Shown here in pieces: positions 2,390 to 59,061 of a stretch of DNA of 64,000 nt. The notes beneath the pieces were generated by a model, which did no database searches, had not been told where the DNA came from, and saw only the letters and a list, made by a program, of their open reading frames with translations. The stretch is from a virus: positions 1-64,000 of IMG/VR virus record IMGVR_UViG_3300045988_103931. One strand, given 5' to 3'. Every line of letters starts with the position of its first letter. The first letter of the stretch is position 1. The translations under genes and the position numbers were made by a program.

Positions 2390-5300
2390 ATGGCTGAGAA
2401 CGTCATCAGAAAAGACGTTATACAGGTCAGTGTGGAAACGGATTCTAAAGGGCTTGAATCTGTTGTTGATATGCTTGATGAGTTGAAAAAGAAACTCACG
2501 GGCGGGGTTAATGATGGACTGGACGATTTGAAAAAGTCGGTCAAGGGCGCGGGACAAGAAGACGGAATTGAGCAATTAGCCAAAGACGCAAAGAAACTGT
2601 CTGACAGTGTTGAAAAAGCTAAAAAGCCGCTAAAAGAAATTGTAAAGACTAATTTTGCGAAATTAAAAAGCGGTTTAGGAAAAGTCGGTAGCAACTTAGC
2701 GGCAATAGCAAAAAAAGCGGGAGTGAGCGCGTATGCAGGATTAAAAAAGTTTGCGCAAGTTGGTTTAGAAAAACTAAAGTCCGGCTTAAAGAAAGTTAAA
2801 GATTACCTATCGGGAATAGCCAAAAAAGCGGCAGGAGCGGCGTGGACGGGTCTTAAAAAGTTGGCAGGTATTTCATTCAAGGCTTTGGCTGCCGGACTTA
2901 CAGGGGCGGCTACTGCTGTAGGATTCATCGTTAAGAACTCCGTCCAAGCCTATGCTGATTATGAGCAGTTGGTTGGTGGTGTAGAAACAATACTCGGTGC
3001 AAAAGGCGCAAAGAGTGTTGAAGAATACGCCAAAATGACTAAAAAATCTGTCGATGAAGTCAAAGATGAATACGGTTCTTTGATGAAAAGCGAAAAGCTC
3101 GTATTAAAGAACGCCGACAATGCTTATAAAACCGCAGGACTTTCAGCAAATGAATACATGGAGACGGTAACGGGATTCTCTGCAAGCCTGTTGCAAGGTC
3201 TTAAAGGTGACACCGTAAAAACTGCTCAATATGCAAATACCGCTGTTATTGACATGGCGGATAACGCGAATAAGATGGGTACTAACATAGGAAGTATCCA
3301 AGACGCATATCAAGGTTTTGCAAAGCAGAATTACACCATGTTAGATAACTTAAAGCTCGGTTATGGCGGCACAAAAGAAGAAATGTCGCGTCTTGTAAAA
3401 GATGCCGCGAACATGACCGATGTTCAAAAGAAACTCGGCGTTACCGTTGATTCAAGCAGTTTGTCTTTTGATAATATCGTAAATGCTATTCACGTCATGC
3501 AAGAAAGCATGGATATTAACGGAACAACGGCGGAAGAAGCAGAGAAAACGATAAGTGGCTCTCTTGCGTCCATGAAATCTGCATGGAATAACTTACTTCC
3601 TGCATTGGTTATGGGCGGTGATAGTTTTGACCGTTGCGTAGATAATCTTGTTGATTCTGTTATGACATTCAAAGACAACATCATGCCCGCGATAACAAAG
3701 GCTTTGTCTGGTGTCGGAGAACTTATAACAAGATTAGCACCTACCATTGAGAAATATTTCCCCGTTCTTGTCAATGAGTTGTTGCCGCCCTTAATCAAGG
3801 CTACAGTGGCATTGGTAAAAGGTCTTATAGCTGCAATGCCGACTATCTTGAAAACAATAGCAAGTGAATTGCCGTGGATTGTACAACAACTCGGACAGGC
3901 AATTTCATCGGCGTTTGGTGCGTCAATGCCGTCTATAGATATATCTGGATTGTTTAACGGTAGCGGCACTTTCAAAGCCATATTTACCGACATTAAAAAC
4001 GCAGTGTCTACCGTTGTGCTTGCTTTGGGCGGTCTTATTGCAAAAATCGTAGAATTTGCAAGCAAACAATCTACGCTTGACGCAATCAAAAATACATGGA
4101 ACGCATTAAAAACGGTCGTGCAAGGCGTATGGACGGTTATTTCTGGTGTTGTTGGATTTTTGGCTAACAATCTTTCGTGGATAGCTCCGTTGGTCATGAC
4201 AATTGTGACGGCTTTCGTAGCATTCAAGACTATAATGCTCGTGATAAAAGGCGTTCAGCTTGCATATGCAGCCGTTCAAGCTATTGTTAATGCGACAATG
4301 TTGGCTTGCCCTGTTACATGGATAGTGCTTGCTATAGCTGCTTTGATAGCTATTATAGTAGCGTGTGCGGTTCACTGGGATACTCTCAGTGCTGCTGCAA
4401 AGAAGTGTTGGGAGGGCATAAAAGGTGCGTGGACAACAGTTGCGGAGTGGTTTAACAATAGTGTGATTCAGCCCGTTGTTTCATTCTTTAAAGGTCTTTG
4501 GAATGGTATAGTTAATATTTTCAAAAGCCTTATGACATGGGTAAAAAATAACTTTAAATCCATACTGTTGTTTATTGTCAACCCCTTTGCGGGAGCATTT
4601 TCTTATTTGTATGAAAATTTTGAGGGGTTCAGAAATTTTGTAAACAATATTTTGCGATCAATCAAAAATTTCTTTGTCGGACTTGGTAGAGGTATTGCAA
4701 AAATAGCTTCAAGCATTAAAGATTCGGTTGTCAATGCGTTCAAAGACGCATGGGATAAAGTTACTGGGATTTGGGATAAATTGAGTGACTTTTTCTCAGG
4801 CATTTGGGACGGAATAAAAGCGACAGGAAAAGGCTTGAAGAACATACTTGTTGATATATGGAAAAATGCGGTAAAGGCTGTTGCGAAACCCGTCAACAAA
4901 GTTATTGGCGGTGCTAACTGGATTCTTGACAAACTCGGCTCTGACAAGAAGCTCGCAGAATGGCAACCTTACGCAAGAGGTACGAATGGGCATAAAGGCG
5001 GTAATGCGCTTGTAAACGACGGAAACGGCGCGGAATTGATACAAATGCCGAATGGCAAAACATTCATTCCGTGTGGTAGAAACGTATTTCTTCCGAACGC
5101 GCCAAAGGGCATGAAAGTGCTTGACGCAGAAAATACCGCTAAACTCATGGGCAAAAACTCCCCGACGTACAATTACAAGGATGGTACAGGTTGGGATATT
5201 TTTGACTTTTTCGATAATGCAAAAGGTCTTGTTGGAAAGGTCATTGAAAAGTTTGTCAATTATAAGGGCATGAGCGGATTTGTTCTTGACGTTGGCAAGT

Positions 5301-17358: not shown

Positions 17359-17458
17359 ATTTGAGAATGACGCAGACGCAGAGTGACCGCCGAAAGGCGG
17401 GTAATGCGAGTACCGAAAACGGTAGCGGTCACAACTCCGCAAGAAAGGAACAAACAAA

Positions 17459-20346: not shown

Positions 20347-21207
20347 GTGTTTTATATAGGAGATTGGGATAAGCAGAAAATCATTTCCCACTACATCGAA
20401 AACAATGATGTAAAAAAAGTCTTGGTGATATACAGCAAGCAACGGAATGAATATGAAACGGGCATAGAAACCCGATATATAGAATTACATCTTGCTAAAG
20501 CACATGAGACGCACTACGAGTTATTACAGTACATAAACAGATACACGCTAATTGTTATGGATGATTTGTTAGTATCACAGCAAAGATACATGAACGAATA
20601 TAACTGTGTTGCTAACTTTGTCAATCAAACCCCGCACAGACTTGTATTTAACTATCTCCCGTTTATTGAGCAAAAAGACGATTTCATGATTCTGCTTGAC
20701 TTTTACAACAGAGTGAAATACAAGGGCGAAAGATTTGATTATGAGCTTTTCAAAGACTTCAAATACTTCATCAAGCCTGTGCATATTAAAGTCAATTTTC
20801 ATGAAGTGGAGGTAATGAATGAAGATGTAAGAAATTACAATCAGCAAAGGGATGAATTGTTCGCCGAAATCGGTCTTGCAAATCCGCAGATAATCCCTAA
20901 TAGATTATCCGCAATGTGTGGAGATGTAAAGTATAAAACCGCTCCATTCGATAAAATGATTGCGAGAAATCGGCGATATAAGAATTTAACCACATTCAAG
21001 GATTCTGCGGTTAATCCGATTCTGGAATTTCCCGTTAAAAGACAAGACTTTGTTGAGTGGATTTCAAGAACGAAACAGACGGAGATTGATGTATTAACAA
21101 GCCAGTTGAGCATGGATGAATGGTATAAACAGGATTATCTGAACTGGATAGAAAGGCTTGAAGAATTTTATGATAAGGCAAACATTTATCGGAATAAACG
21201 TAGTTGA
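20347..21207 (+). CDS. module-1 protein X1 (unknown; paralog of 22846..23565)
   Basis: GTG 20347 lies 6 nt after AGAAAGG. It shares IGDWDKQKI / IGEYDKTKI, HRLVFNYLPF / HRLIFNYFPI and DFMIL with X2. Confidence 0.6.
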   Translation: MFYIGDWDKQKIISHYIENNDVKKVLVIYSKQRNEYETGIETRYIELHLAKAHETHYELLQYINRYTLIVMDDLLVSQQRYMNEYNCVANFVNQTPHRLVFNYLPFIEQKDDFMILLDFYNRVKYKGERFDYELFKDFKYFIKPVHIKVNFHEVEVMNEDVRNYNQQRDELFAEIGLANPQIIPNRLSAMCGDVKYKTAPFDKMIARNRRYKNLTTFKDSAVNPILEFPVKRQDFVEWISRTKQTEIDVLTSQLSMDEWYKQDYLNWIERLEEFYDKANIYRNKRS

Positions 21208-22309
21208 AGCAACAAAGAAAAGAATCGAGTGGATTTTTGATAACTTTGAACACATAGTCGTAAGCATTAGTGGCGGGAAAGATAGCACGGTTCTTGCGTA
21301 CATGACATTGCAAGAAGCGCACAAGAGAAACCGAAAGATAGGCATTTTCTTCCTCGATGAAGAAGTGGTCTATCAAAGCACGGTAGATCAGGTGCGGTAC
21401 TTGATGGAACTTTATCCAGAAAACACGGTGAAGATGTGGTATCAATTGGAGTTTAATCTCACAAATGCCACAAGCCTTGATGAAACACAGTTTAAAGTAT
21501 GGGATAAAGACAAGCAAGATATTTGGATGAGACCGAAAGAACCGGACAGCATTACATATCCAACATGGGACTTGAGCAAAGAAACAATCCGCAACAAAAA
21601 GAAAGGTTTTGGGTTTTTCGACGCTATGGATAACTTTGTAGCCACATACACAAATACGGCATATCTAATCGGATTAAGAGCAGCCGAAAGTTTGAACAGG
21701 TGGAGAGCGGTTACAAAGTACGCAGGAATCCCAAACGTCTATTGGAGTACATACAGAAACAACGGCAATTATAACCTATATCCGCTGTACGATTGGAACT
21801 TTCAAGACATTTGGAAATATCTTTACGAAAACAAAATAAGATACTCCAAAATATACGATTATCAGTATAAAAAAGGACTTGGTATGAAAGACATGAGAGT
21901 GTCGAGTTTGATACACGAAAAGTCATTTCATTCACTTGTCGAACTTCCGGAGTTTGAGCCGGAAACATACGATAAGCTAATAATCAGAACACAGGGGGTG
22001 CAGGTCGGAAATATCTATGGCAAAGACGATTTAATGCTCAGATGTAGGAAATTGCCTAAAAATTTCAAAGATTGGATGGAATACAGAGATTTTCTGTTAT
22101 CGACTGTAAAGGAAGACGATATAAAAGCGATATTTGAAAAGCGTTTCTCGAAACAGCTTAACAACAACTACGTCGCGCGTCAGCAGTGCAAACAGCTAAT
22201 ACTGAATGACTATGAAAACAATCTTGGAATAACGAACGGCGAGGACAAACGAGAAAAAGAACTGAAATACTGGAAAGGAGTTTTATATGGTGAAAGTTAT
22301 ACAGAGTGA
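21170..22309 (+). CDS. module-1 PP-loop ATPase, PAPS-reductase family (IbrA-like)
   Basis: It has the PP-loop VSISGGKDS, plus RKIGIFFLDEEVVY, LRAAESLNR, YPLYDW, RVSSLIHEKSF and a C-terminal ARQQCKQLILNDYENN. It overlaps X1. The ORF-track start is 21158. Confidence 0.7.
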   Translation: MIRQTFIGINVVEATKKRIEWIFDNFEHIVVSISGGKDSTVLAYMTLQEAHKRNRKIGIFFLDEEVVYQSTVDQVRYLMELYPENTVKMWYQLEFNLTNATSLDETQFKVWDKDKQDIWMRPKEPDSITYPTWDLSKETIRNKKKGFGFFDAMDNFVATYTNTAYLIGLRAAESLNRWRAVTKYAGIPNVYWSTYRNNGNYNLYPLYDWNFQDIWKYLYENKIRYSKIYDYQYKKGLGMKDMRVSSLIHEKSFHSLVELPEFEPETYDKLIIRTQGVQVGNIYGKDDLMLRCRKLPKNFKDWMEYRDFLLSTVKEDDIKAIFEKRFSKQLNNNYVARQQCKQLILNDYENNLGITNGEDKREKELKYWKGVLYGESYTE

Positions 22310-22844
22310 AAAAGGAGAAATTAAACTACCATGTTTCGATGTGGTGTTGGTTGACATTGATAAGGTTGTGGCGAATGACTACAACCCCAACCATGTCAGC
22401 GTAAAAAATATGCAGTTACTTGAAGAAAGCATTATAAGCAACGGCTTTTGTTTCCCTGTGGTAACCATACATGATGAAAAGAAAGACGAGTACATTATTA
22501 TAGACGGCTTTCACAGATACACGATATTCAAGGACTATCTAAAGGCAAAGCAGCTTCCTGTTGTTGTACTCGACCACGATTTGAGCAAACGTATGATTGC
22601 AACGGTTCAGTTTAACAGAGCAAGAGGAGTTCATCATGTGGAGCTTATGGGGGATCTTGTGAAAGCGTTGGCGGGAGAGGGAATAACAGACGAACAAATA
22701 GCTGTAAGCCTTGGAATGGAAATGGAGGAAGTGTACAGGCTGAAGCAAATCACGGGCGTTGCAGAGCTGTTTAAAAATCAGTTATACAGTCCTGCATGGG
22801 AAATGAAAGACATGGACAAGAACGTGTACTATCAGGGAGATTGA
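22287..22844 (+). CDS. module-1 ParB-N-domain protein (IbrB-like)
   Basis: Motifs: ANDYNPNHV, NGFCFPVVT, IIIDGFHRYT and VQFNRARGVH. It overlaps the IbrA-like gene. Confidence 0.7.
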   Translation: MVKVIQSEKGEIKLPCFDVVLVDIDKVVANDYNPNHVSVKNMQLLEESIISNGFCFPVVTIHDEKKDEYIIIDGFHRYTIFKDYLKAKQLPVVVLDHDLSKRMIATVQFNRARGVHHVELMGDLVKALAGEGITDEQIAVSLGMEMEEVYRLKQITGVAELFKNQLYSPAWEMKDMDKNVYYQGD

Positions 22845-22845
22845 T

Positions 22846-23565
22846 ATGAAAAAAATATACATAGGAGAATACGACAAAACAAAAATTGTCAATGAATATA
22901 TCTCCGAAAACAAAATTGATAAGGTATATATTATCGGAGACGATATATCAATTGACTTTGAGAACAAGGAAAACATAAAATTTTCCGATACCATAATGTA
23001 CAAATATTTCTACAGGCTATTGCAGGAAATCAATAAGGATTCGTTAATCGTACTTAATGAGTGCTTAAAAAAGCAGAACAGATACGATTTAACATATAAC
23101 TGTATCAGACGGTATATGTTACAGACAGACCACCGCTTAATCTTCAACTATTTCCCCATCGTCAAAGAACAAGAAGATTTTATGATCTTGTACGATATGC
23201 TTCAAAACAATCCGTTCTTGAAAGAACCCTATAAATATATCACTGAATTTGAAAATGTTGAAGTTAGCAAGGTTGTATTTGATGTCAACAAAACCGACGT
23301 TGTTTTGCCAGATGAGTGTGAAGCAGAGTATGAGCGTGAAAAAGAAAACCTCATCGGCAAGGTGAATAAAGACCCCGATATAATTCCGAGAGGGTTGTTA
23401 AGATTCAGCGAAAAGAAGAAACCAAAGAACTATGACAGTTTGGCGAAAATTAAGCCAGTGATGAACGTGGCAGTAAGTCAGTTAAAGGTTGATACGTATT
23501 ATTACAACGAATTACTAAACTTTAGAAAGGAATTGACCGATGTCTTACAAAAAATACACGGATAA
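22846..23565 (+). CDS. module-2 protein X2 (unknown; paralog of X1)
   Basis: 239 aa. See X1 for the shared motifs. Confidence 0.6.
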   Translation: MKKIYIGEYDKTKIVNEYISENKIDKVYIIGDDISIDFENKENIKFSDTIMYKYFYRLLQEINKDSLIVLNECLKKQNRYDLTYNCIRRYMLQTDHRLIFNYFPIVKEQEDFMILYDMLQNNPFLKEPYKYITEFENVEVSKVVFDVNKTDVVLPDECEAEYEREKENLIGKVNKDPDIIPRGLLRFSEKKKPKNYDSLAKIKPVMNVAVSQLKVDTYYYNELLNFRKELTDVLQKIHG

Positions 23566-24655
23566 AACCGTGTTAGAAGCAACGAAAGAGAGAATCAGCT
23601 ACATTTTCGATGAGTTTGAAAACATCATTGTTTCTATCAGCGGGGGGAAAGACAGCGAAGTGTTGTGTTATCTTGCACTTCAAGAAGCAAGGAAAAGAGG
23701 CAGAAAGATAGGCATATTCTTTTTGGATGAAGAAGTTGTTTATAAATCCACCATAGAAATGGTGGAGTACCTCATGAGTATGTACCCCGAAAACACAAAC
23801 AGATTTTGGTTGCAAATTCCTTTTAATCTCACAAACTCAACAAGTTTCGCTGACGGGCAGGTGAATTGTTGGGAACAGGCAAAAAAACCTGTATGGATGC
23901 ACAAGAGAAGTGAGAAGAACATACTCAGAAAAACATGGTCGCATGAGACGCATATCGCAGACAAAAACAAAGGTTTTGGCTTCTACGATGTAATGTACAA
24001 CTTTGAATATTCATTTGAAAACACAGCTTTTCTTGTCGGATTAAGAGCGGACGAAAGTTTGAACCGATACAGAACAATGGTAAAGCGCAAAGGCTACAAG
24101 GACATTTACTGGAGTACAAAAAGAGCAGGAACAAATTATTCGTTTTATCCTCTTTATGACTGGGGATTCAATGATGTATGGAAGTTCATCGGAGAAAACA
24201 ATCTGAAATATCATAAGTTTTATGATTTTGCCTACAAAAAAGGAAAGCACATCAATGAGATCAGAGTGTCGAGCTTGACGCACGAAAAAAGTTTCAAGTC
24301 GATTCAAGACTTGCCCGAATTTGAGTTTGATACATACGAAAAACTATTGAAGCGTATAAAAGGCATTTCGTTTGCGCAAGAAACCGCAAAAGACAGGAAA
24401 ATGTTTAAGGTGCAGAAGCTCCCGCAGAACTATAAGTCGTGGAGAGAGTACAGAGATTTTCTACTTGCAACATACCCAGACGAAAGCAAGAAACCTATTT
24501 TTGAAAAACGATTTGCCAAGCATCTTGACAATGAATTTGTTGCAAGACAGCAGTGCAAACAGCTTGTTCTTAACGATTACGAAAATAACTTCCCGGTAAA
24601 AAACACAGAAGACCCGATTATGGAAAGAATCAATTATTGGAGGAAAGTGTTATGA
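23540..24655 (+). CDS. module-2 PP-loop ATPase, PAPS-reductase family (IbrA-like)
   Basis: Motifs: VSISGGKDS, RKIGIFFLDEEVVY, LRADESLNR, YPLYDW, RVSSLTHEKSF and ARQQCKQLVLNDYENN. It is collinear with the module-1 copy. Confidence 0.7.
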   Translation: MSYKKYTDKTVLEATKERISYIFDEFENIIVSISGGKDSEVLCYLALQEARKRGRKIGIFFLDEEVVYKSTIEMVEYLMSMYPENTNRFWLQIPFNLTNSTSFADGQVNCWEQAKKPVWMHKRSEKNILRKTWSHETHIADKNKGFGFYDVMYNFEYSFENTAFLVGLRADESLNRYRTMVKRKGYKDIYWSTKRAGTNYSFYPLYDWGFNDVWKFIGENNLKYHKFYDFAYKKGKHINEIRVSSLTHEKSFKSIQDLPEFEFDTYEKLLKRIKGISFAQETAKDRKMFKVQKLPQNYKSWREYRDFLLATYPDESKKPIFEKRFAKHLDNEFVARQQCKQLVLNDYENNFPVKNTEDPIMERINYWRKVL

Positions 24656-25185
24656 AGATAGATATTCCGTGCCTTAACATCAAACTTGTTGACAGAGATA
24701 TGTTACAGGCGAATAATTACAACCCGAACAATGTGCCAAAGGATAAGATGGAATTGCTCAAGCAGTCGATTATCGACAATGGTTTTTGCTTTCCTATTGT
24801 AACGATTTGGAGCGAGGAAGATGAGAAGTATATCATCATTGATGGATTCCATAGATATACAATGTGTATGCCGGAGTGGTTGGACATAAAACAAGTGCCT
24901 GTCGTTGTGTTGAAACACGATTTAAGTCAGCGAATGGCAGCAACGATTCAGTTCAACAAGGCAAGGGGAGTTCATGCCGTCGACGGTGACGCAGAAATTG
25001 TTAGAAGTCTAATCGAACAGGGATTGAGCGAGGAAGAAATAAGCAAGCACCTTGGTATCGACATGGAAACCGTACTGAGATATAAGCAACTCACAGGAAT
25101 TGTTGAACTGTTCAAGAACGTTGAATATAGCAAGAGTTGGGAAGTCGGAGAGTTCGACGGAGAGGATGAAAAGGAGGATAGATAA
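24652..25185 (+). CDS. module-2 ParB-N-domain protein (IbrB-like)
   Basis: ATG 24652 lies behind GGAGGAAAG. Motifs: ANNYNPNNV, NGFCFPIVT, IIIDGFHRYT and IQFNKARGVH. Confidence 0.7.
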   Translation: MKIDIPCLNIKLVDRDMLQANNYNPNNVPKDKMELLKQSIIDNGFCFPIVTIWSEEDEKYIIIDGFHRYTMCMPEWLDIKQVPVVVLKHDLSQRMAATIQFNKARGVHAVDGDAEIVRSLIEQGLSEEEISKHLGIDMETVLRYKQLTGIVELFKNVEYSKSWEVGEFDGEDEKEDR

Positions 25186-26620: not shown

Positions 26621-26724
26621 TAATTGTAGAGTGGCGGCGGCAACGCCGTTAATGCAGTCTAACGCAGATTCAACGCATTAAAACAGTGTTAGAGCGGTCA
26701 CAACTCCGCAGAAAGGTAAAAATC

Positions 26725-27671: not shown

Positions 27672-28064
27672 GTGAAAAGAGTAAGTAAAATCATGATTGC
27701 GGCGGCATTAATTCTCTCAATGATGGGATGTACGCAAGCTGACATAGTATCAACAAACGTATCAAGAAATGCGGATAACTTCAATGTGTGCCGCAGAATA
27801 ACGGTTATCAATAGCCGCACAGATACGGTTATCTACGAGCTTGAAGGAGTGTTCTCACTGAGTAATGGCTATAATAACGAGCTTGAAGTTATTTGTCAGA
27901 CTGGCGAGAACGAATACAAAAAGCACTTCATTTATCTTACCGATACAGTGTTGTATGTCGTGGAAGATATGAGCGGTGCTGACGTATCTCCATATCATTA
28001 CGAAGTCACATTCTATCCGCAGATGGTTGGTGGTGTTGACGTAGATGTAAAGTGGGAGAATTAA
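27672..28064 (+). CDS. putative lipoprotein
   Basis: GTG start behind AGAAAGG. There is a signal peptide with a lipobox (LILSMMGC). Confidence 0.55.
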   Translation: MKRVSKIMIAAALILSMMGCTQADIVSTNVSRNADNFNVCRRITVINSRTDTVIYELEGVFSLSNGYNNELEVICQTGENEYKKHFIYLTDTVLYVVEDMSGADVSPYHYEVTFYPQMVGGVDVDVKWEN

Positions 28065-28805
28065 ATGAAATACATATACAAACCGAAAGGCAAGGCAAAA
28101 GAGTACGGAGATTATGCAATTAACATTTACACCGGATGTCCTCACAGGTGCTATTATTGCTTTGCTCCAAGTGTTTTGCGTAAAGACAAAGAAAAGTTTC
28201 ACACTTGCGTTGAACCGCGAGAAAACATTGTAGAGGGCGTAAAAAGACAGGTGGAGCGCGAGAACATTACAGGAAAGTTAATACACCTATGTTTCATTTG
28301 TGATCCGTACCCAAAAGGATATGACAGCACACCAACAAGAGAGATAATCAAAATTCTTAAAGGTGCGGGAAATCATGTGCAGATTCTCACAAAGAATGGA
28401 TTGGACGCTGCACGTGACTTTGATTTGCTTGACGGTGATGATTGGTTCGGAGTGACTTATGCAGGATATGACGAATATGTGCTTGACAGAACATATATCC
28501 CGATTGAAGAACCGGGCGCGGGAAGTCCGCATGATAGGCTTCTTGCTCTTGCGGTAGCACACAATAGAGGAATCAAAACATGGGTATCCGCCGAACCAAT
28601 TATTAACGCTGCCGATGTACTTCAAGTCATGGAATTTGCAGATTATGTTGACCGTTGGAAAGTCGGAAAGATGAATTATCACGAATCTAATATTGACTGG
28701 GCGGCATTCGGCAGACTTGCAGAAGCAACGCTTAATTCGTTACACAAAGAATACTACATAAAAGAAAGTTTAAGAAAGGAAATGGAAAATGGCAACAAAG
28801 ACTGA
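28065..28805 (+). CDS. radical SAM enzyme (COG1533 / spore-photoproduct-lyase-like)
   Basis: GCPHRCYYC (CxxxCxxC) lies near the N-terminus, with a downstream CDPYP motif. Confidence 0.65.
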   Translation: MKYIYKPKGKAKEYGDYAINIYTGCPHRCYYCFAPSVLRKDKEKFHTCVEPRENIVEGVKRQVERENITGKLIHLCFICDPYPKGYDSTPTREIIKILKGAGNHVQILTKNGLDAARDFDLLDGDDWFGVTYAGYDEYVLDRTYIPIEEPGAGSPHDRLLALAVAHNRGIKTWVSAEPIINAADVLQVMEFADYVDRWKVGKMNYHESNIDWAAFGRLAEATLNSLHKEYYIKESLRKEMENGNKD

Positions 28806-38072: not shown

Positions 38073-39617
38073 TTATTGCCTGTTTATTTTCGCGTAAAAG
38101 AAAACATTCGGCTGCCGGAATGAATTGTTATACTCCATATCCCCATTAGGGGAGACGATGAGCGTAATATCAATGCTTTCGTCGCTGATAATGATTGATT
38201 CTACAAATTTATCAAAAATCGTTTTTAACACTTCATCGTCTGTATCGTCGGAGATGGATAACATTTTGTTTAGGTAATCGACTATCATTGAATGCGTCAA
38301 GGTTAATTTCGTTTGACGTTCAATATTGTATATTTGTTGTTCTACTTCTTGCAGTTCGTTTTCTTTCTCGCTGATATGCTCCGCAAGAAACGAATCGCTG
38401 ACTATTCTTTTTGCTCTTAGATCGATCAATTCTTTCATTTCGGATTTCAATGCAGATGAACGAGATTTTAACTGTTTGAGTTTGTCCTTTTGTTCGGTCG
38501 GGTTTTCTCCCAATATTTTAAGCATTTCGTTTGCAATGCTGTAAATAGATTTTTCGTTTAATATGTGACGCTTTATTTCTTTCATTGTGATTTCTTCTAA
38601 ATAGTCTTTTCTGATTCTTTTGCAAGAACAAGTGTGATAGTCTTTGCTTTGCGAACAGACATAATATTTATAATCGTATTTTTTCCCGTTCTGCATACTG
38701 CCGGAACGGATACCGAAATAGTGACTTCCGCAGTTGGCACATCTGATCTTTCCTGTCAAAGCATAAAGCTCTTTCCTCTTTCGCGGTCTAACGCCTTTTT
38801 GCGTGCTGTGCCGATATTGTACTCTGTCCCATAGTTCTTTATCTATTATAGGCGGTATTATATCATGCACAATTATTGGCTCATGCCCTTGCGCACTGTA
38901 CCTTAGTACGCCGATATAAAAATCATTTCTAAGCATTCTTGCTATCGTTTGTATGCTAAAATATTTCCCGCGCCTTGTGAATGCTCCATTGTCTTTGAGA
39001 TATGTCTGTAAATATCTAAGAGAATAATTATCGGCATACAACTCAAATATCTTGTTTACGATTTTACTTTCAAATTCATCTGGAACATACTTCTTTCTTG
39101 TTTTCTTGCCGTGTTGTACAACCTCTAATTTGTAACCATATGGAACTGTACCACCCGCGAAAAATCCCTCTGACACCATTTCCCGCATTGCGCTTTTAAC
39201 GTGGTCGCTGATAACGGCACTTTGATATTCGTCTATGTTTGCCATAACACCAATCATTAGTTTGCCTGACGATGTTTCATCGTCTACCATTTGCGTTACG
39301 GATATGAGTTTAACGCCGTGCTTCTTAAACAACTGGCGATATTTGTGACTTTCGTAAGCATTCCGAAAAATACGGCTGAATTTGTAGACTACAACAACGT
39401 CAATCATTCCGTTTTTAACGTCCCGTATCAATTCATGAAACGCTTCACGCCCTGCAACTTTCGTCCCTGTTATAGCTTGATCTATATATGTTTTTGTGAG
39501 TGGCATATCGTTTTTGTCTAAATATGCTTGGCACTCTGTTAGCTGATATTCAATAGAGAAACCATCGTCTTGTTTCGTGTCTGAATATCTTCCATATATC
39601 CCTGTCCTTTTGTTCAT
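38073..39617 (-). CDS. large serine recombinase (integrase)
   Basis: 514 aa. N-terminal IYGRYSDTKQDDGFSIEYQ, a recombinase domain, Cys motifs (CANCGSHY...YYVCS) and a C-terminal coiled coil. Confidence 0.9.
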   Translation of the reverse strand: MNKRTGIYGRYSDTKQDDGFSIEYQLTECQAYLDKNDMPLTKTYIDQAITGTKVAGREAFHELIRDVKNGMIDVVVVYKFSRIFRNAYESHKYRQLFKKHGVKLISVTQMVDDETSSGKLMIGVMANIDEYQSAVISDHVKSAMREMVSEGFFAGGTVPYGYKLEVVQHGKKTRKKYVPDEFESKIVNKIFELYADNYSLRYLQTYLKDNGAFTRRGKYFSIQTIARMLRNDFYIGVLRYSAQGHEPIIVHDIIPPIIDKELWDRVQYRHSTQKGVRPRKRKELYALTGKIRCANCGSHYFGIRSGSMQNGKKYDYKYYVCSQSKDYHTCSCKRIRKDYLEEITMKEIKRHILNEKSIYSIANEMLKILGENPTEQKDKLKQLKSRSSALKSEMKELIDLRAKRIVSDSFLAEHISEKENELQEVEQQIYNIERQTKLTLTHSMIVDYLNKMLSISDDTDDEVLKTIFDKFVESIIISDESIDITLIVSPNGDMEYNNSFRQPNVFFYAKINRQ

Positions 39618-42385: not shown

Positions 42386-42465
42386 AGCAGAGTGGCGGCG
42401 GCAACGCCGTTAATGCACACAACGAAAGTTGTACGGTCACAAGTCCGAAATTGGAGGGTAAAACA

Positions 42466-55791: not shown

Positions 55792-55811
55792 AATATTGTG
55801 AAAAATAGCAA

Positions 55812-55840
55812 TAGACAAAAAGTTAATAATATGATAAAAT
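55812..55840 (+). promoter_or_regulatory. sigma-A-type promoter at the head of the late operon
   Basis: TAGACA (55812-55817), a 17-nt spacer, TAAAAT (55835-55840) with TGa (extended -10). Confidence 0.55.
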
Positions 55841-55896
55841 GTTATTGTGGAATAACAATATAAACATAATTTGTTTTTCATATTCTCTCTTTCTTG

Positions 55897-55930
55897 AACC
55901 CTGTCGAAGATATCGGCGGGGTTTTCTTAT
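55897..55930 (+). terminator. intrinsic terminator ~80 nt downstream of the late promoter
   Basis: CCCTGTCG (55899-55906), a 7-nt loop, CGGCGGGG (55914-55921; 8 bp including two G-U pairs), then TTTTCTT. Confidence 0.55.
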
Positions 55931-56005
55931 GATTATTTTTCGGTTTTAAGGGTGTTAACGCTATGAAATGTCAGGGGCGGGAGACGGTAGCGTATATAGG
56001 GGTAA

Positions 56006-56545
56006 ATGTTTGCAACAAAAAACGGCACAGGAGTGATATTGTTGCAAATAGTCAAAATAAAAGTAGAGGATTTAACACCGTATGCAAACAACACAAAAAA
56101 ACATACGGCAGAACAAATTGAGCAAATCAAAAGCAGTATAATGAAGTTCGGGAATAATGACCCGATAGCGATATCAGGGAGTGAAAACCAAATTATAGAG
56201 GGGCATGGACGGTATATCGCATTAAAAGAGTTAGGGCATAGTGAAGCGTTGTGCATTCGGTTAGACCATCTTAACGAAAGTGAACGCAAAGCCTATGCAA
56301 TTGCTCACAACAAAATCAATGCTAACACTGGTTTTGATATGGAACTGCTCAAAGAAGAAATGGAGAGTTTGCAAGACGTTGACTTTGATCTTGAACTTAC
56401 CGCTTTTGCTGATTGGGAACTTGATAACTTATTGAATCCAGTGTCTGATGAAGATTTACAGGATTTTTTTGTTGAAAAAGAACCGAAAGAAAAAGAACCA
56501 AAGAAAACAAAATGCCCATCGTGCGGCTGTGAGTTTGAATTATGA
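56006..56545 (+). CDS. ParB-N-domain protein (DpdB-like) with C-terminal zinc ribbon
   Basis: VKIKVEDLTPYANNTKKH...NDPIAIS...IIEGHGRYIALKELG...AIAHNK; C-terminal CPSCGC. Confidence 0.65.
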   Translation: MFATKNGTGVILLQIVKIKVEDLTPYANNTKKHTAEQIEQIKSSIMKFGNNDPIAISGSENQIIEGHGRYIALKELGHSEALCIRLDHLNESERKAYAIAHNKINANTGFDMELLKEEMESLQDVDFDLELTAFADWELDNLLNPVSDEDLQDFFVEKEPKEKEPKKTKCPSCGCEFEL

Positions 56546-57279
56546 AACTCTGTCTTGCAGGAACAAGCGGGGTATACGAGAGTACAAGACCGCACTTAAA
56601 ACAAGTCCCGTATTTATTGGAGAGCTTTTATTATTTTTGCCCTTTTCAGAAACCTTTAATTAAAAGTGCTGATTTGTTTTTGCTCGACAGTGGCGCATTT
56701 ACATTCATGAACGGGGCGAAAGGCAAAGTTAATTGGGATGACTACATAAACAAGTATATATCGTTCATAAACGAGAATGACGTTGAACATTATTTTGAGC
56801 TTGATATTGACGTTATTGTTGGGTATGAAGAAGTAAGGCGCATACGAACTAAAATAGAAAGAGAGACGGGGAAGAAAGCCGTTCCGGTGTGGCACAAATC
56901 AAGAGGAATGGATGAATTCAAAAGGCTTGTGAATGATTATGACTATATAGCAATCGGGGGATTTGCTATTAAGCATATCAAACGCAATGAATACCCTATT
57001 ATCAAGAGGATGGTGCAATACGCCTATGATAACGGAGTAAAAGTTCATGGTTTGGGATTCACGCCAAAAGAAGTTACACAATACAAATTTTATTCGGTCG
57101 ATAGCACAACGTGGCTGAGTTGTCGGAGGTTTGGCAGCTTGTTCGTTTATAATAACGGACAAATGAAAATGATAACGCCGAAAAACCATGGAACACGGAA
57201 AGACAAACAAAGAGAGATTGAGCTATTAACTCTCAAAGAGTGGATAAAATATCAAAAATATCTCAGTAGGAGTTGTTGA
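56542..57279 (+). CDS. dpdA: DpdA-like DNA (7-deazaguanine) transglycosylase, TGT superfamily
   Basis: LLDSGAFTF, IAIGG, VHGLGF and YSVDSTTW follow the order of TGT/DpdA TIM-barrel motifs. The context is ParB-like, QueF-like and YhhQ-like genes. Confidence 0.6.
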   Translation: MKLCLAGTSGVYESTRPHLKQVPYLLESFYYFCPFQKPLIKSADLFLLDSGAFTFMNGAKGKVNWDDYINKYISFINENDVEHYFELDIDVIVGYEEVRRIRTKIERETGKKAVPVWHKSRGMDEFKRLVNDYDYIAIGGFAIKHIKRNEYPIIKRMVQYAYDNGVKVHGLGFTPKEVTQYKFYSVDSTTWLSCRRFGSLFVYNNGQMKMITPKNHGTRKDKQREIELLTLKEWIKYQKYLSRSC

Positions 57280-57282
57280 CAT

Positions 57283-57594
57283 TTGATAGAGAACACGCAA
57301 CAAGTGAATTTGATTGAAGCAGACAAACAAATCGTTTTATACTGCCCTATCGGAAAAGATTATTATACGGCGATTGTAAACATTGAGTTTATCCCGAATG
57401 AGTATTATATGGACTACATCAAACTCGATCAATTTCTTAATAGATTGAGCGGACTGAGCCTAACAATTGAAGATGCTGCAAGAGATATTTACGATGAATT
57501 GCGGAGTTACAGACCGTCAAAAGCGAAAGTTACGATTGAAGCATTTAGCAACACTCACCTACACGTCAAGGTAACAAAGGGTGATAACATTTGA
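57283..57594 (+). CDS. QueF-like T-fold protein (divergent)
   Basis: It aligns by eye to B. subtilis QueF: LYCPIGKDYYTAIVNIEFIPNEYYMDYIKLDQFL versus [33 protein letters not shown]. The Cys is kept, but the E-S-K-S-L-K motif is changed. Confidence 0.5.
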   Translation: MIENTQQVNLIEADKQIVLYCPIGKDYYTAIVNIEFIPNEYYMDYIKLDQFLNRLSGLSLTIEDAARDIYDELRSYRPSKAKVTIEAFSNTHLHVKVTKGDNI

Positions 57595-58229
57595 GGAAGA
57601 CGCAAGAATCTTTAAATATGCTAACAATTGTATTTATCGTATCGCTTGTTATCTCAAACGTAATAACAGGCAAGGTCATTGATACTGGGATAACATTATT
57701 CGGAAATGCAGTGACGATAGCAGGAGCGGTTATCTGCTATCCAGTGTGTTATCTTATCACGGACATTGTTGGCGAGGTATGGGGCAAACGTGAAGCAAAC
57801 AAAATTGTAAGATACGGCTTTATCGGTCAGGTGATAGCAACACTCATTGTTATTATTACAACCTACACGCCGTATATCGATTCTGAAATGCAAGCGGCAT
57901 ATGTAAAGCTATTGGGGCAGAACTGGGTGTTCGTTGTGGGCAGTCTATCGGCTTACCTTGTTAGTCAGTATCTGGATGTTCACATATTCCACAAACTTAA
58001 AAGCAAGAGCAATAAACATAAATGGTTGAGAAACAACGCAAGTACAATGTTATCTCAATTTGTAGATACAGCGATTTTTATTACTATTGCTTTCGGGTTT
58101 GGGTTTGGATGGATATTCGATAATCAAATTGCATTATTTAATATGCTCATTGGGCAATACGTCATTAAGTTATTTATTGCCATTCTGGACACTCCATTCT
58201 TCTATTATTTCACAAGAGAGCGGCGTTAA
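57591..58229 (+). CDS. YhhQ/VUT-family queuosine-precursor transporter
   Basis: It is multi-TM. ITDIVGEVWGKREANKIVRYGF matches the family core. Confidence 0.65.
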   Translation: MRKTQESLNMLTIVFIVSLVISNVITGKVIDTGITLFGNAVTIAGAVICYPVCYLITDIVGEVWGKREANKIVRYGFIGQVIATLIVIITTYTPYIDSEMQAAYVKLLGQNWVFVVGSLSAYLVSQYLDVHIFHKLKSKSNKHKWLRNNASTMLSQFVDTAIFITIAFGFGFGWIFDNQIALFNMLIGQYVIKLFIAILDTPFFYYFTRERR

Positions 58230-58266: not shown

Positions 58267-59061
58267 ATGCTGTCAGATTTTGATATGATAATTCATAATT
58301 ATCAAATGAATAAGGATATGCTTATCATTCCCGTGTCAGATGTTCATTTAGGAAGCAGGGAACATTTACGCGGAGAATGGAAGAAGTTTTGCGCAGATGT
58401 ATTGAAGCAAGACAATGTATTTATCACACTCGGTGGCGATCTGATTAACAACGCTACCCGTTCAAGTGTTTCGAACATATTTGAAGAAACAATGCGTCCC
58501 TCTGAGCAGAAAAAGGAAATGGCAGAAATGCTTAAACCTTTAGCAGAAGCGGGACGCATTCTTTGTGCTGTCAGAGGTAATCACGAAAAGAGAAGTGGCA
58601 AAGACGCGGACGATGACCCTATGTATGATATTATGGCAAAACTTGATCTTGAAGATATATACAGAGAAAACGTAGCGTTTTTAAAAATCTGTATGGGAGA
58701 TAAAAACGGAGACGGCAAAACAAATCCCACATACTGTTTAGCGCTCACTCACGGCGCGGGTGGTGGCATATACACTGGCGCAGCCGTAAACAGAAATGAA
58801 CGCTTCGGAACTATAATAGACGGCATAGACGGACTTATAGTAGGGCATACACACAAGGGAGCTATAACAAAGCCGATGAAGATATTTGTTGATAAATTCA
58901 ATAACAAGATATCATACAAACAATATGTTGTTATATCTTCCGTGCCGTGGTTGCAATATGGCGGTTATGCTCTTGCCAAAATGATGATACCCGCAACGAG
59001 TGGAGAACCGCAGATAATGAAATTACATAGAAACGAGAAAAAGATAGAACTTACTTGGTAA
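58267..59061 (+). CDS. metallophosphoesterase (calcineurin-like)
   Basis: Motifs: VSDVHLG, GGDLIN, GNHE and GHTH. Confidence 0.7.
   Translation: MLSDFDMIIHNYQMNKDMLIIPVSDVHLGSREHLRGEWKKFCADVLKQDNVFITLGGDLINNATRSSVSNIFEETMRPSEQKKEMAEMLKPLAEAGRILCAVRGNHEKRSGKDADDDPMYDIMAKLDLEDIYRENVAFLKICMGDKNGDGKTNPTYCLALTHGAGGGIYTGAAVNRNERFGTIIDGIDGLIVGHTHKGAITKPMKIFVDKFNNKISYKQYVVISSVPWLQYGGYALAKMMIPATSGEPQIMKLHRNEKKIELTW

Follow-up and report, generated by a model that had tools for sequence, protein, structure and literature searches.

7-Deazaguanine modifications of DNA shield phages from restriction enzymes, and protection against Cas9 has been seen in vitro. To our knowledge, all characterised phage cases rely on de novo synthesis of the modified base, encoded either by the phage or by its host. 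The phage modification clusters, in which the base is inserted by the transglycosylase DpdA, were reportedly described by Hutinet et al. in 2019 and by Kot et al. in 2020. Here, we analysed a stretch of viral DNA (positions 1 to 64,000 of the IMG/VR virus record IMGVR_UViG_3300045988_103931; hereafter the window) that represents 64 kb of a circularly permuted phage genome of ~74.8 kb; the phage is known from contigs of gut metagenomes. At 56006–58229 on the + strand it carries a module of four consecutive genes, for a ParB-type protein, a short DpdA, a small tunnel-fold protein resembling the archaeosine synthase QueF-L and a queuosine-precursor transporter of the YhhQ type. We interpret the module, with moderate confidence, as a cassette, expressed together with the packaging genes, through which a temperate phage of gut Firmicutes modifies its DNA with a salvaged 7-deazaguanine.

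The closest described systems are the clusters of the phages CAjan and 9g (Escherichia) and Dp-1 (Streptococcus), whose DpdA belongs to the same PHROG as that of the window, with the same catalytic residues, and for which an anti-restriction role is likewise presumed. The CAjan and Dp-1 clusters also contain a transporter gene, which is yhhQ in CAjan and queT, adjoining dpdA, in Dp-1, and Dp-1 has a QueF-type tunnel-fold gene as well, although this encodes a canonical 173-aa QueF in contrast to the 103-aa protein of the window. Unlike the window phage, in which none of the four was found, these clusters carry folE, queD, queE and queC. The stretches of CAjan and Dp-1 that were examined contain no ParB gene, whereas such a gene is near-constant in the relatives of the window module, and their DpdA proteins measure ~306–311 aa compared with 245 aa here. 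The bacterial Dpd system (DpdA/DpdB/DpdC), reported by Thiaville et al. in 2016, similarly combines a TGT-like DNA transglycosylase with a ParB-fold protein, and some dpd islands embed yhhQ (PMC5699537). However, DpdB belongs to the DndB type of ATPases and has, besides a DGQQR motif, a large C-terminal domain (PMC10164549, PMC5699537), whereas the partner in the window is a 179-aa ParB/Srx protein with a GxxRxxA motif and a CPxCG tail, located in a phage and not in a restriction-modification island. The precomputed Pfam annotations across the phage include no DpdC (DUF328), for which no dedicated model was run, and there is no restriction cluster of the dpdD-K kind next to the module; the only helicase, an SNF2 protein, is encoded ~37 kb away.

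Salvage of the base by a phage encoding DpdA and YhhQ is an already published hypothesis (PMC6884629, PMC5699537). The ‘group 3’ phages of Hutinet et al. 2019 encode DpdA without genes for the synthesis of preQ0 or the amidine G+, as does the window phage, and reliance either on host preQ0 or on uptake was proposed for them, with the remark that some phages encode YhhQ (PMC6884629). A review from 2017 inferred salvage from the yhhQ genes embedded in bacterial dpd clusters (PMC5699537). No correlation between YhhQ and phage group was seen in the phage study (PMC6884629), whereas the family with short DpdA and ParB that is described below shows mutual exclusivity between YhhQ and the de novo genes, together with a QueF-L-like gene that tracks the transporter. 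Our literature searches found no description of the core formed by a CPxCG-tailed ParB and a short DpdA, of a strict alternation between YhhQ and de novo genes within one DpdA lineage, or of a QueF-L-like family tied to a transporter. The cassette is a variant, common and widespread though little described, of an anti-restriction system that is already known.

The four open reading frames (ORFs) lie at 56006–56545, 56542–57279, 57283–57594 and 57591–58229, joined by two 4-nt overlaps and one 3-nt gap, and all motifs listed for them in an initial annotation of this DNA (LLDSGAF, AIGG, HGLGF, SVDSTTW, YCPIGKD, DYIKLD and ITDIVGEVWGKREANKIVRYGF) are found in their translations. In this order they encode a ParB/Srx N-terminal-domain protein (179 aa; phrog_620, GxxRxxA motif), a short DpdA-family DNA-guanine transglycosylase (245 aa; phrog_887), a tunnel-fold protein resembling QueF-L (103 aa; AlphaFold/Foldseek and a family profile) and a YhhQ/QPTR (COG1738) queuosine-precursor transporter (212 aa; Vut_1, TIGR00697). 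The matches behind these identities go far beyond what chance would give.

The second protein matches phrog_887, labelled ‘queuine tRNA-ribosyltransferase’, at 7e-52, and the same PHROG takes in the DpdA proteins of CAjan (8e-96), which has been validated genetically, and Dp-1 (1e-66). A profile of the window's DpdA family matches CAjan DpdA at 7e-21, and by sequence comparison the protein is nearer to the CAjan type than to the Dp-1 type. When the protein is aligned with those of CAjan, Dp-1, phiFN37 and one divergent relative, D49, S50, D88, H118, H169, D187 and S188 are invariant, and D49, D88, D187, H118 and H169 are so in the family alignment as well. The active-site residues of bacterial DpdA are Asp95, Asp130, His181 and Asp256 (PMC10164549); those of the window, mapped by motifs and not by superposition, would correspond to the Asp that acts as general acid/base, to the Asp and His that recognise the base and to the Asp nucleophile of DpdA and the TGTs. 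Pfam yields no family at E <= 0.01, including TGT (PF01702), the sole NCBIfam match is to the DpdA model (16.7 bits), and no CxCxxC...H zinc motif was seen in the 245 residues. Single-sequence and profile searches of PDB sequences returned noise only, with no TGT or DpdA match. The fold predicted by AlphaFold (pLDDT 88) is a TIM barrel, and the archaeal arcTGT 1j2b is the structure to which its TM-score is highest (0.57). The initial call of a TGT-superfamily protein with DpdA-like motifs is upheld: the protein groups with validated phage DpdAs and matches no tRNA-TGT model, clustering with the latter having been named beforehand as the outcome that would speak against the call.

Its neighbour, the first gene product, matches phrog_620 at 4.8e-51. 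Pfam ParB_N gives 19.6 bits, under the gathering score of 26.3, which the homologue in locus L018 passes at 35.9, and NCBIfam returns generic ParB, Noc and SerK matches only. Gene callers place the start at 56039, giving 168 aa. The canonical nucleotide-binding motif GxxRxxA is present as GHGRYIA, and the C-terminus has one CPxCG knuckle and one further Cys at its extreme end, so that the ParB-N assignment made at first stands while the C-terminal zinc ribbon proposed with it falls short of a full one with four Cys. A CxxC, typically CPxCG, occurs within the last 30 residues in 46 of the 54 ParB proteins listed, several of which come from near-identical contigs, and most have GxxRxxA. A ParB gene lies directly 5' of DpdA in 45 of the 51 related loci. 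With regard to the description of the whole as a Dpd-like module, the DpdA part was borne out, whereas the ParB protein, with GxxRxxA and not the DndB-type DGQQR, is by its motifs analogous to DpdB and not orthologous. ParB-domain proteins beside other phage DNA-modifying enzymes have been noted earlier, as of ‘function unknown’ (PMC12783734).

The fourth protein passes curated models of the YhhQ/VUT family, to which it had been assigned, over their full length: Pfam Vut_1 matches at 4e-48 (164 bits against a gathering score of 27.2, profile positions 2–151 of 152), and TIGR00697, the NCBIfam equivalog for a ‘queuosine precursor transporter’, scores 145.7 bits where 50.95 would suffice. NF008406, the model of the E. 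coli type, reaches just 60.8 (cut-off 252). Genes for de novo synthesis of preQ0 were missing by three approaches. No QueC, QueD, QueE or GTP cyclohydrolase I occurs in the precomputed Pfam annotations over essentially the whole ~75 kb phage, tblastn with the preQ0-pathway enzymes of Dp-1 gave noise only, and profiles of QueC, QueD, QueE and FolE built from 16–32 related-prophage sequences each found nothing at E <= 10 in six-frame translations. That FolE, QueD, QueE and QueC are absent, as noted at the outset, hence holds for the window and for the remaining ~10.8 kb of the phage, which were checked on a contig with identical copies of the proteins looked up.

Support for a supply of such modules by a transporter comes above all from comparison. 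The DpdA alignment, scanned against one genome per species, identified 51 loci, mostly in Clostridia metagenome-assembled genomes of the Acutalibacteraceae (80% identity), Ruminococcaceae, Oscillospiraceae and Lachnospiraceae, with further loci in Veillonella, Enterococcus and Staphylococcus intermedius; YhhQ is missing from the prophages of Veillonella sp. VA142, Enterococcus sp. BWB1-3 and Staphylococcus intermedius NCTC 11048. These, together with viral contigs and two GenBank phage records, were annotated with hidden Markov models (HMMs), and 49, mostly prophages, were informative downstream of DpdA. There, YhhQ alone follows DpdA in 15 loci, tunnel-fold gene plus YhhQ, the arrangement of the window, in five, QueC plus tunnel-fold gene plus YhhQ in five and QueC plus YhhQ in three. 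QueC together with QueD/QueE/FolE is found in another 15 and QueD/QueE/FolE without QueC in two; one locus has QueC alone, and three have neither YhhQ nor de novo genes. YhhQ is thus present in 28 loci and QueD/QueE/FolE in 17, with none having both (Fisher 9e-10, uncorrected for phylogeny). This exclusivity directly supports, and strengthens, the initial claim that the DpdA module is fed by a transporter instead of biosynthesis genes. Furthermore, modules of the two types are thoroughly interleaved on the DpdA tree, and the exclusivity therefore reflects repeated cassette exchange: the tree supports a view of YhhQ and the de novo genes as interchangeable supply cassettes that were swapped repeatedly, and not as a single inherited state.

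The tunnel-fold gene keeps company with the transporter. It occurs in 10 of the 28 YhhQ modules and in none of the 17 de novo modules (p = 0.007), and occupies at least five separate places on the DpdA tree. The four-gene order of the window recurs in L018, L026 and L031, at 27–55% DpdA identity, and in L073, where the contig ends inside DpdA. In viral contig L019 the tunnel-fold gene lies between QueC and YhhQ, and the 14 kb examined contain no DpdA. In several relatives the module is located directly 5' of terS/terL. QueC without QueD, QueE or FolE was observed in salvage modules both with YhhQ only (L028, L041 and L062) and with the tunnel-fold gene and YhhQ (L014, L022, L063, L065 and L072). 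Its presence would make sense if uptake extended to 7-carboxy-7-deazaguanine (CDG) or 7-amido-7-deazaguanine (ADG), with conversion to preQ0 thereafter; we know of no case of CDG or ADG salvage. A separate observation concerns Clostridium phage CDKM15 (L003, NC_048643), in which a DpdA remnant adjoins an intact YhhQ at 4336–5225, at the end of the linear record. The 78-aa ‘queuine tRNA-ribosyltransferase’ annotated there, considered as a counterpart of the tunnel-fold protein, is instead the C-terminal third of DpdA (profile positions 171–242), and the module is either decayed or split by the start of the record.

The 103-aa protein itself has no match in Pfam, NCBIfam or PHROGs. Its AlphaFold model, computed with 26 homologues, reaches a pLDDT of 92.4, and the top 13 Foldseek matches in the PDB are all chains of QueF-L (5jyx/5k0p), with TM-scores of 0.82–0.89 at a root-mean-square deviation of ~1.5 Å; the 5jyx chains (TM 0.88) are matched over the full length. 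Unimodular QueF (B. subtilis) and then GTP cyclohydrolase I rank next. Besides QueF-L, at 0.0065, the family profile picks out a dihydroneopterin aldolase among PDB sequences, at 0.0036. An exhaustive HMM search gave 267 representative clusters of the family, those listed being mostly ~100–110 aa; Pfam QueF is reached by 6 of 87 sampled members, the window protein not among them. A narrower alignment, used to search for related loci, returned six viral loci. Neither the 144-aa product of the third phiFN37 module gene nor any of the CAjan cluster's hypothetical genes is a homologue.

Residues were mapped by hhalign against canonical Dp-1 QueF and by column counts over the 87 sequences. Cys21 aligns to the thioimide Cys of QueF and to Cys21 of QueF-L, and Glu63 to the substrate-anchoring Glu, which we equate with Glu97 of the B. 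subtilis enzyme, a position that carries a mutation in PDB 5udg. The motif reading of the initial annotation, DYIKLD in place of E(S/L)K(S/A)hK, is confirmed, since hhalign sets the six residues from Asp44 (Asp-Tyr-Ile-Lys-Leu-Asp) against Glu-Ser-Lys-Ser-Leu-Lys of canonical QueF, and both Lys of the NADPH motif are gone. Cys21 and Glu63 are present in all 87 sequences, Gly24 and His92 in 85, Asn4 in 84, Asp44 in 82, Tyr28 in 76 and Asp26 in only 39, so that the general acid/base Asp of QueF-L lacks a conserved counterpart at the aligned position. The small QueF-like T-fold protein proposed earlier is accordingly supported by fold and by the retained Cys and Glu, and lies closer to QueF-L than to QueF. 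With QueF-L of Pyrobaculum calidifontis (5jyx/5k0p) it shares the single tunnel-fold domain of ~105 aa, the thioimide Cys, the substrate Glu and the absence of an NADPH motif, whereas the near-invariant Asn4, Asp44 and His92 are new with respect to both QueF-L and QueF. To judge from sequence and model, it is a distinct relative of QueF-L outside both characterised families. Unlike QueF-L, the family is also acidic (median net charge −6, pI 4.9) and linked to a transporter instead of the tRNA pathway. QueF-L docks on tRNA (PMC5485725). Because of this acidity, the window protein probably acts on the free imported base, and docking on nucleic acid in the manner of QueF-L seems unlikely.

These components can be arranged into the following mechanism. 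The YhhQ/QPTR protein, as its family membership suggests, would import a free queuosine precursor, most likely preQ0 and possibly preQ1. The tunnel-fold protein, given its fold and its Cys and Glu, may bind the nitrile of preQ0 as a Cys21 thioimide without a need for NADPH, leading either to a non-reduced derivative, of which the amidine G+ is favoured, or to a covalent hold that keeps preQ0 inside the cell and away from host QueF. Conversion to G+ is our tentative first choice for this step. Less weight is given, in equal measure, to reduction to preQ1 through an unrecognised cofactor site and to covalent trapping or carriage of scarce preQ0, the latter of which would account for the exclusive tie between this protein and the transporter. 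Hydration to ADG or some other reaction makes up the remainder; ADG formation fits poorly, because QueC, which runs the opposite way, lies beside the tunnel-fold gene in half of the cases. The short DpdA, on the evidence of its residues, would then exchange guanines in replicated phage DNA shortly before packaging by the double displacement of TGTs, with D187 as the predicted nucleophile and D49 as general acid/base, while the ParB protein, in view of its conserved adjacency, may serve as a DNA-loading or NTP-dependent helper of DpdA, like DpdB. DNA modified in this way would resist host restriction. Since the supply depends on uptake, we expect modification to be sparse or motif-restricted and not a bulk replacement; by our own arithmetic, ~30,000 guanines per genome times the burst size is a demand that salvage could meet only if modification were sparse or motif-specific.

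A bolder proposal, which we put forward with considerable reserve, is that the 103-aa protein founds a family of tunnel-fold enzymes (Cys21, Tyr28, Asp44, Glu63 and His92) for 7-deazaguanine salvage, coupled to YhhQ and either trapping preQ0 covalently or converting it cofactor-free, and that the CPxCG-tailed ParB protein, as an obligate cofactor in the manner of DpdB, marks out a separate class of phage DpdA that depends on ParB. If this were true, salvage-type phages would either install a base that cannot be predicted from gene content or modify their DNA usefully from nanomolar precursor.

Several points weigh against interpreting the module as a salvage cassette. Modification by this phage, and by the group with short DpdA and ParB, is predicted from the genes, and in the Foldseek search with the DpdA model the E-values for TGT are no better than those for unrelated TIM barrels. 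In the tunnel-fold protein, Tyr28 stands where QueF and QueF-L have the general-acid Asp, so that QueF-like chemistry is not assured, and Ile62, beside Glu63, stands at the position of QueF His96. The relative L023, with a DpdA 80% identical to that of the window, has YhhQ and no tunnel-fold gene; the core reaction can therefore do without the tunnel-fold protein, whose gene belongs as an accessory to the salvage cassette and not to the transglycosylase. The transporter sequence does not tell preQ0, preQ1 or queuine apart as substrate, and preQ0 made by the host may be the source. On this last point an alternative can be built, in which the phage uses host-made preQ0, the transporter is a minor supplement or serves the lysogen, and there is no true dependence on salvage. 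CAjan without folE or queC still incorporates preQ0 from host metabolism, ~12-fold less, and deletion of its yhhQ changed nothing, though CAjan also has the de novo genes (PMC7544227); moreover, the three related ParB–DpdA loci with neither YhhQ nor de novo genes agree with a host supply. We nevertheless hold this alternative to be unlikely, as the strict alternation of YhhQ and de novo genes beside the same core, with repeated swaps, is hard to explain if YhhQ is irrelevant to supply, and as a passage in PMC11130926 holds that exchange of queuosine precursors must occur among members of the microbiota in the mammalian host, which makes salvage in the gut plausible. The module might also be inactive or vestigial, as the DpdA-only Mycobacterium phage Orion had no modification (PMC6884629) and CDKM15 keeps its 78-aa DpdA remnant beside YhhQ. 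However, all four ORFs of the module are intact, the tunnel-fold protein and the other proteins looked up recur unchanged on independent metagenome contigs, and purifying selection is indicated by catalytic residues that do not vary among dozens of diverged homologues; we hold a loss of function to be improbable.

A role in tRNA has likewise to be considered, in which the TGT-like enzyme acts on tRNA and the cassette alters the queuosine content of host tRNA, tuning translation. YhhQ and QueF-like proteins are classical components of the tRNA queuosine pathway, and a boost in queuosine precursors for host tRNA has been suggested for phages that have pathway genes without DpdA (PMC6884629). Given the lack of a Pfam TGT match, the shared membership of phrog_887 with DNA-acting DpdAs, the near-constant ParB-type DNA-binding partner and the position of the module among DNA-packaging genes, we attach very little probability to it. 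The last alternative involves a radical SAM gene (28065–28805, + strand; 246 aa, SPL-like), located directly after a Phage_VG64/RDF-like gene (the pair spans 27672–28805) and assigned to phrog_13321, of unknown function. As a candidate for QueE it was rejected, since the QueE profile finds nothing in the window and the weak matches of the protein are to the PA0069, Rv2578c and mobile-pair radical SAM families. The phage could import queuine and use this protein as a QueL-like queuine lyase that regenerates preQ1 for DpdA. QueL of gut Clostridia is a radical-SAM enzyme that converts queuine to preQ1, some YhhQ homologues carry queuine (PMC11570991), and both the weak resemblance to PA0069/Rv2578c-type families and the label ‘DNA repair photolyase’ given to close homologues by JGI are in keeping with such a role. 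Yet the module is 28 kb away from the gene, which is part of the early region; all its family scores are far under the cut-offs, and a profile search of the PDB was uninformative. The family is very common, with 4040 homologues, many in gut phages, and no shown link to DpdA, so that queuine cleavage for DpdA is in our view the remotest of these alternatives.

With the salvage cassette as the preferred interpretation, its surroundings can be described briefly. The module is preceded by genes for a sigma factor, a RusA-like resolvase and a dUTPase and by a small regulator-like gene, and is followed by a metallophosphoesterase gene, terS, terL and a portal gene. A consensus scan only gave a promoter-like site (55812–55840, + strand) and a terminator-like hairpin with a 12-bp stem followed by a T-run (55896–55924, + strand), which stands between the upstream regulator gene and the module. 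The four consecutive genes of the initial annotation are thus established by their ORFs and motifs, while its statement that they open the late operon is a reasonable but purely positional reading, from the hairpin upstream and terS/terL downstream. Rfam detected neither a preQ1 riboswitch, at gathering scores or at E <= 10, nor a member of another family ahead of the module; the intergenic region at 55792–56005 shows a weak, sub-threshold resemblance to Firmicute sRNAs (RsaOG, 24 bits; gathering score 50). The calcineurin-like metallophosphoesterase that precedes terS (58267–59061, + strand; Pfam Metallophos 5e-08, phrog_7339 ‘DNA repair exonuclease’) was detected solely in contigs of the same phage and is missing from the other related modules, even from close relatives such as L015, and it is doubtful as a member of the module. 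The phage is likely temperate, because a serine recombinase gene is present (38073–39617, minus strand), and its host likely belongs to the gut Firmicutes.

Other observations in the window are independent of the module. Rfam detects Twister-P5 ribozymes on the + strand at 17377–17440 (52.1 bits), 26625–26709 (37.8) and 42386–42448 (49.9), with a gathering score of 37.6. Two tandem gene pairs at 21158–25185 (+ strand) each encode a PAPS-reductase/DUF3440 protein (383 and 371 aa) followed by a ParB_N protein (185 and 182 aa); we take them to resemble IbrA/IbrB pairs, and they may constitute a second, unrelated DNA-modification system. A PAPS-reductase/ParB_N-type pair is also found near the DpdA module of Fusobacterium phage phiFN37. 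In the otherwise near-identical contigs L006–L008, a 173-aa dGTP_diPhyd_N (PF18909) protein is encoded at 1751–2287, corresponding to ~52.5 kb of the window, while the window and L004 have just a 44-aa ORF at this position; the PF18909 gene is a variable nucleotide-metabolism gene of the same phage.

The module offers three objects for experiment: a short DpdA that may depend on ParB, a clean natural experiment with a transporter in place of a pathway of four enzymes, and a relative of QueF-L that is invisible to Pfam. If the salvage interpretation is true, a large group of gut prophages, with hosts among Clostridia, Veillonella, Enterococcus and Staphylococcus, would use a micronutrient taken up from the gut to guard its DNA. 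The fitness of these phages would then be tied to the community pool of queuosine precursors, which is contested by bacteria and by the mammalian host.

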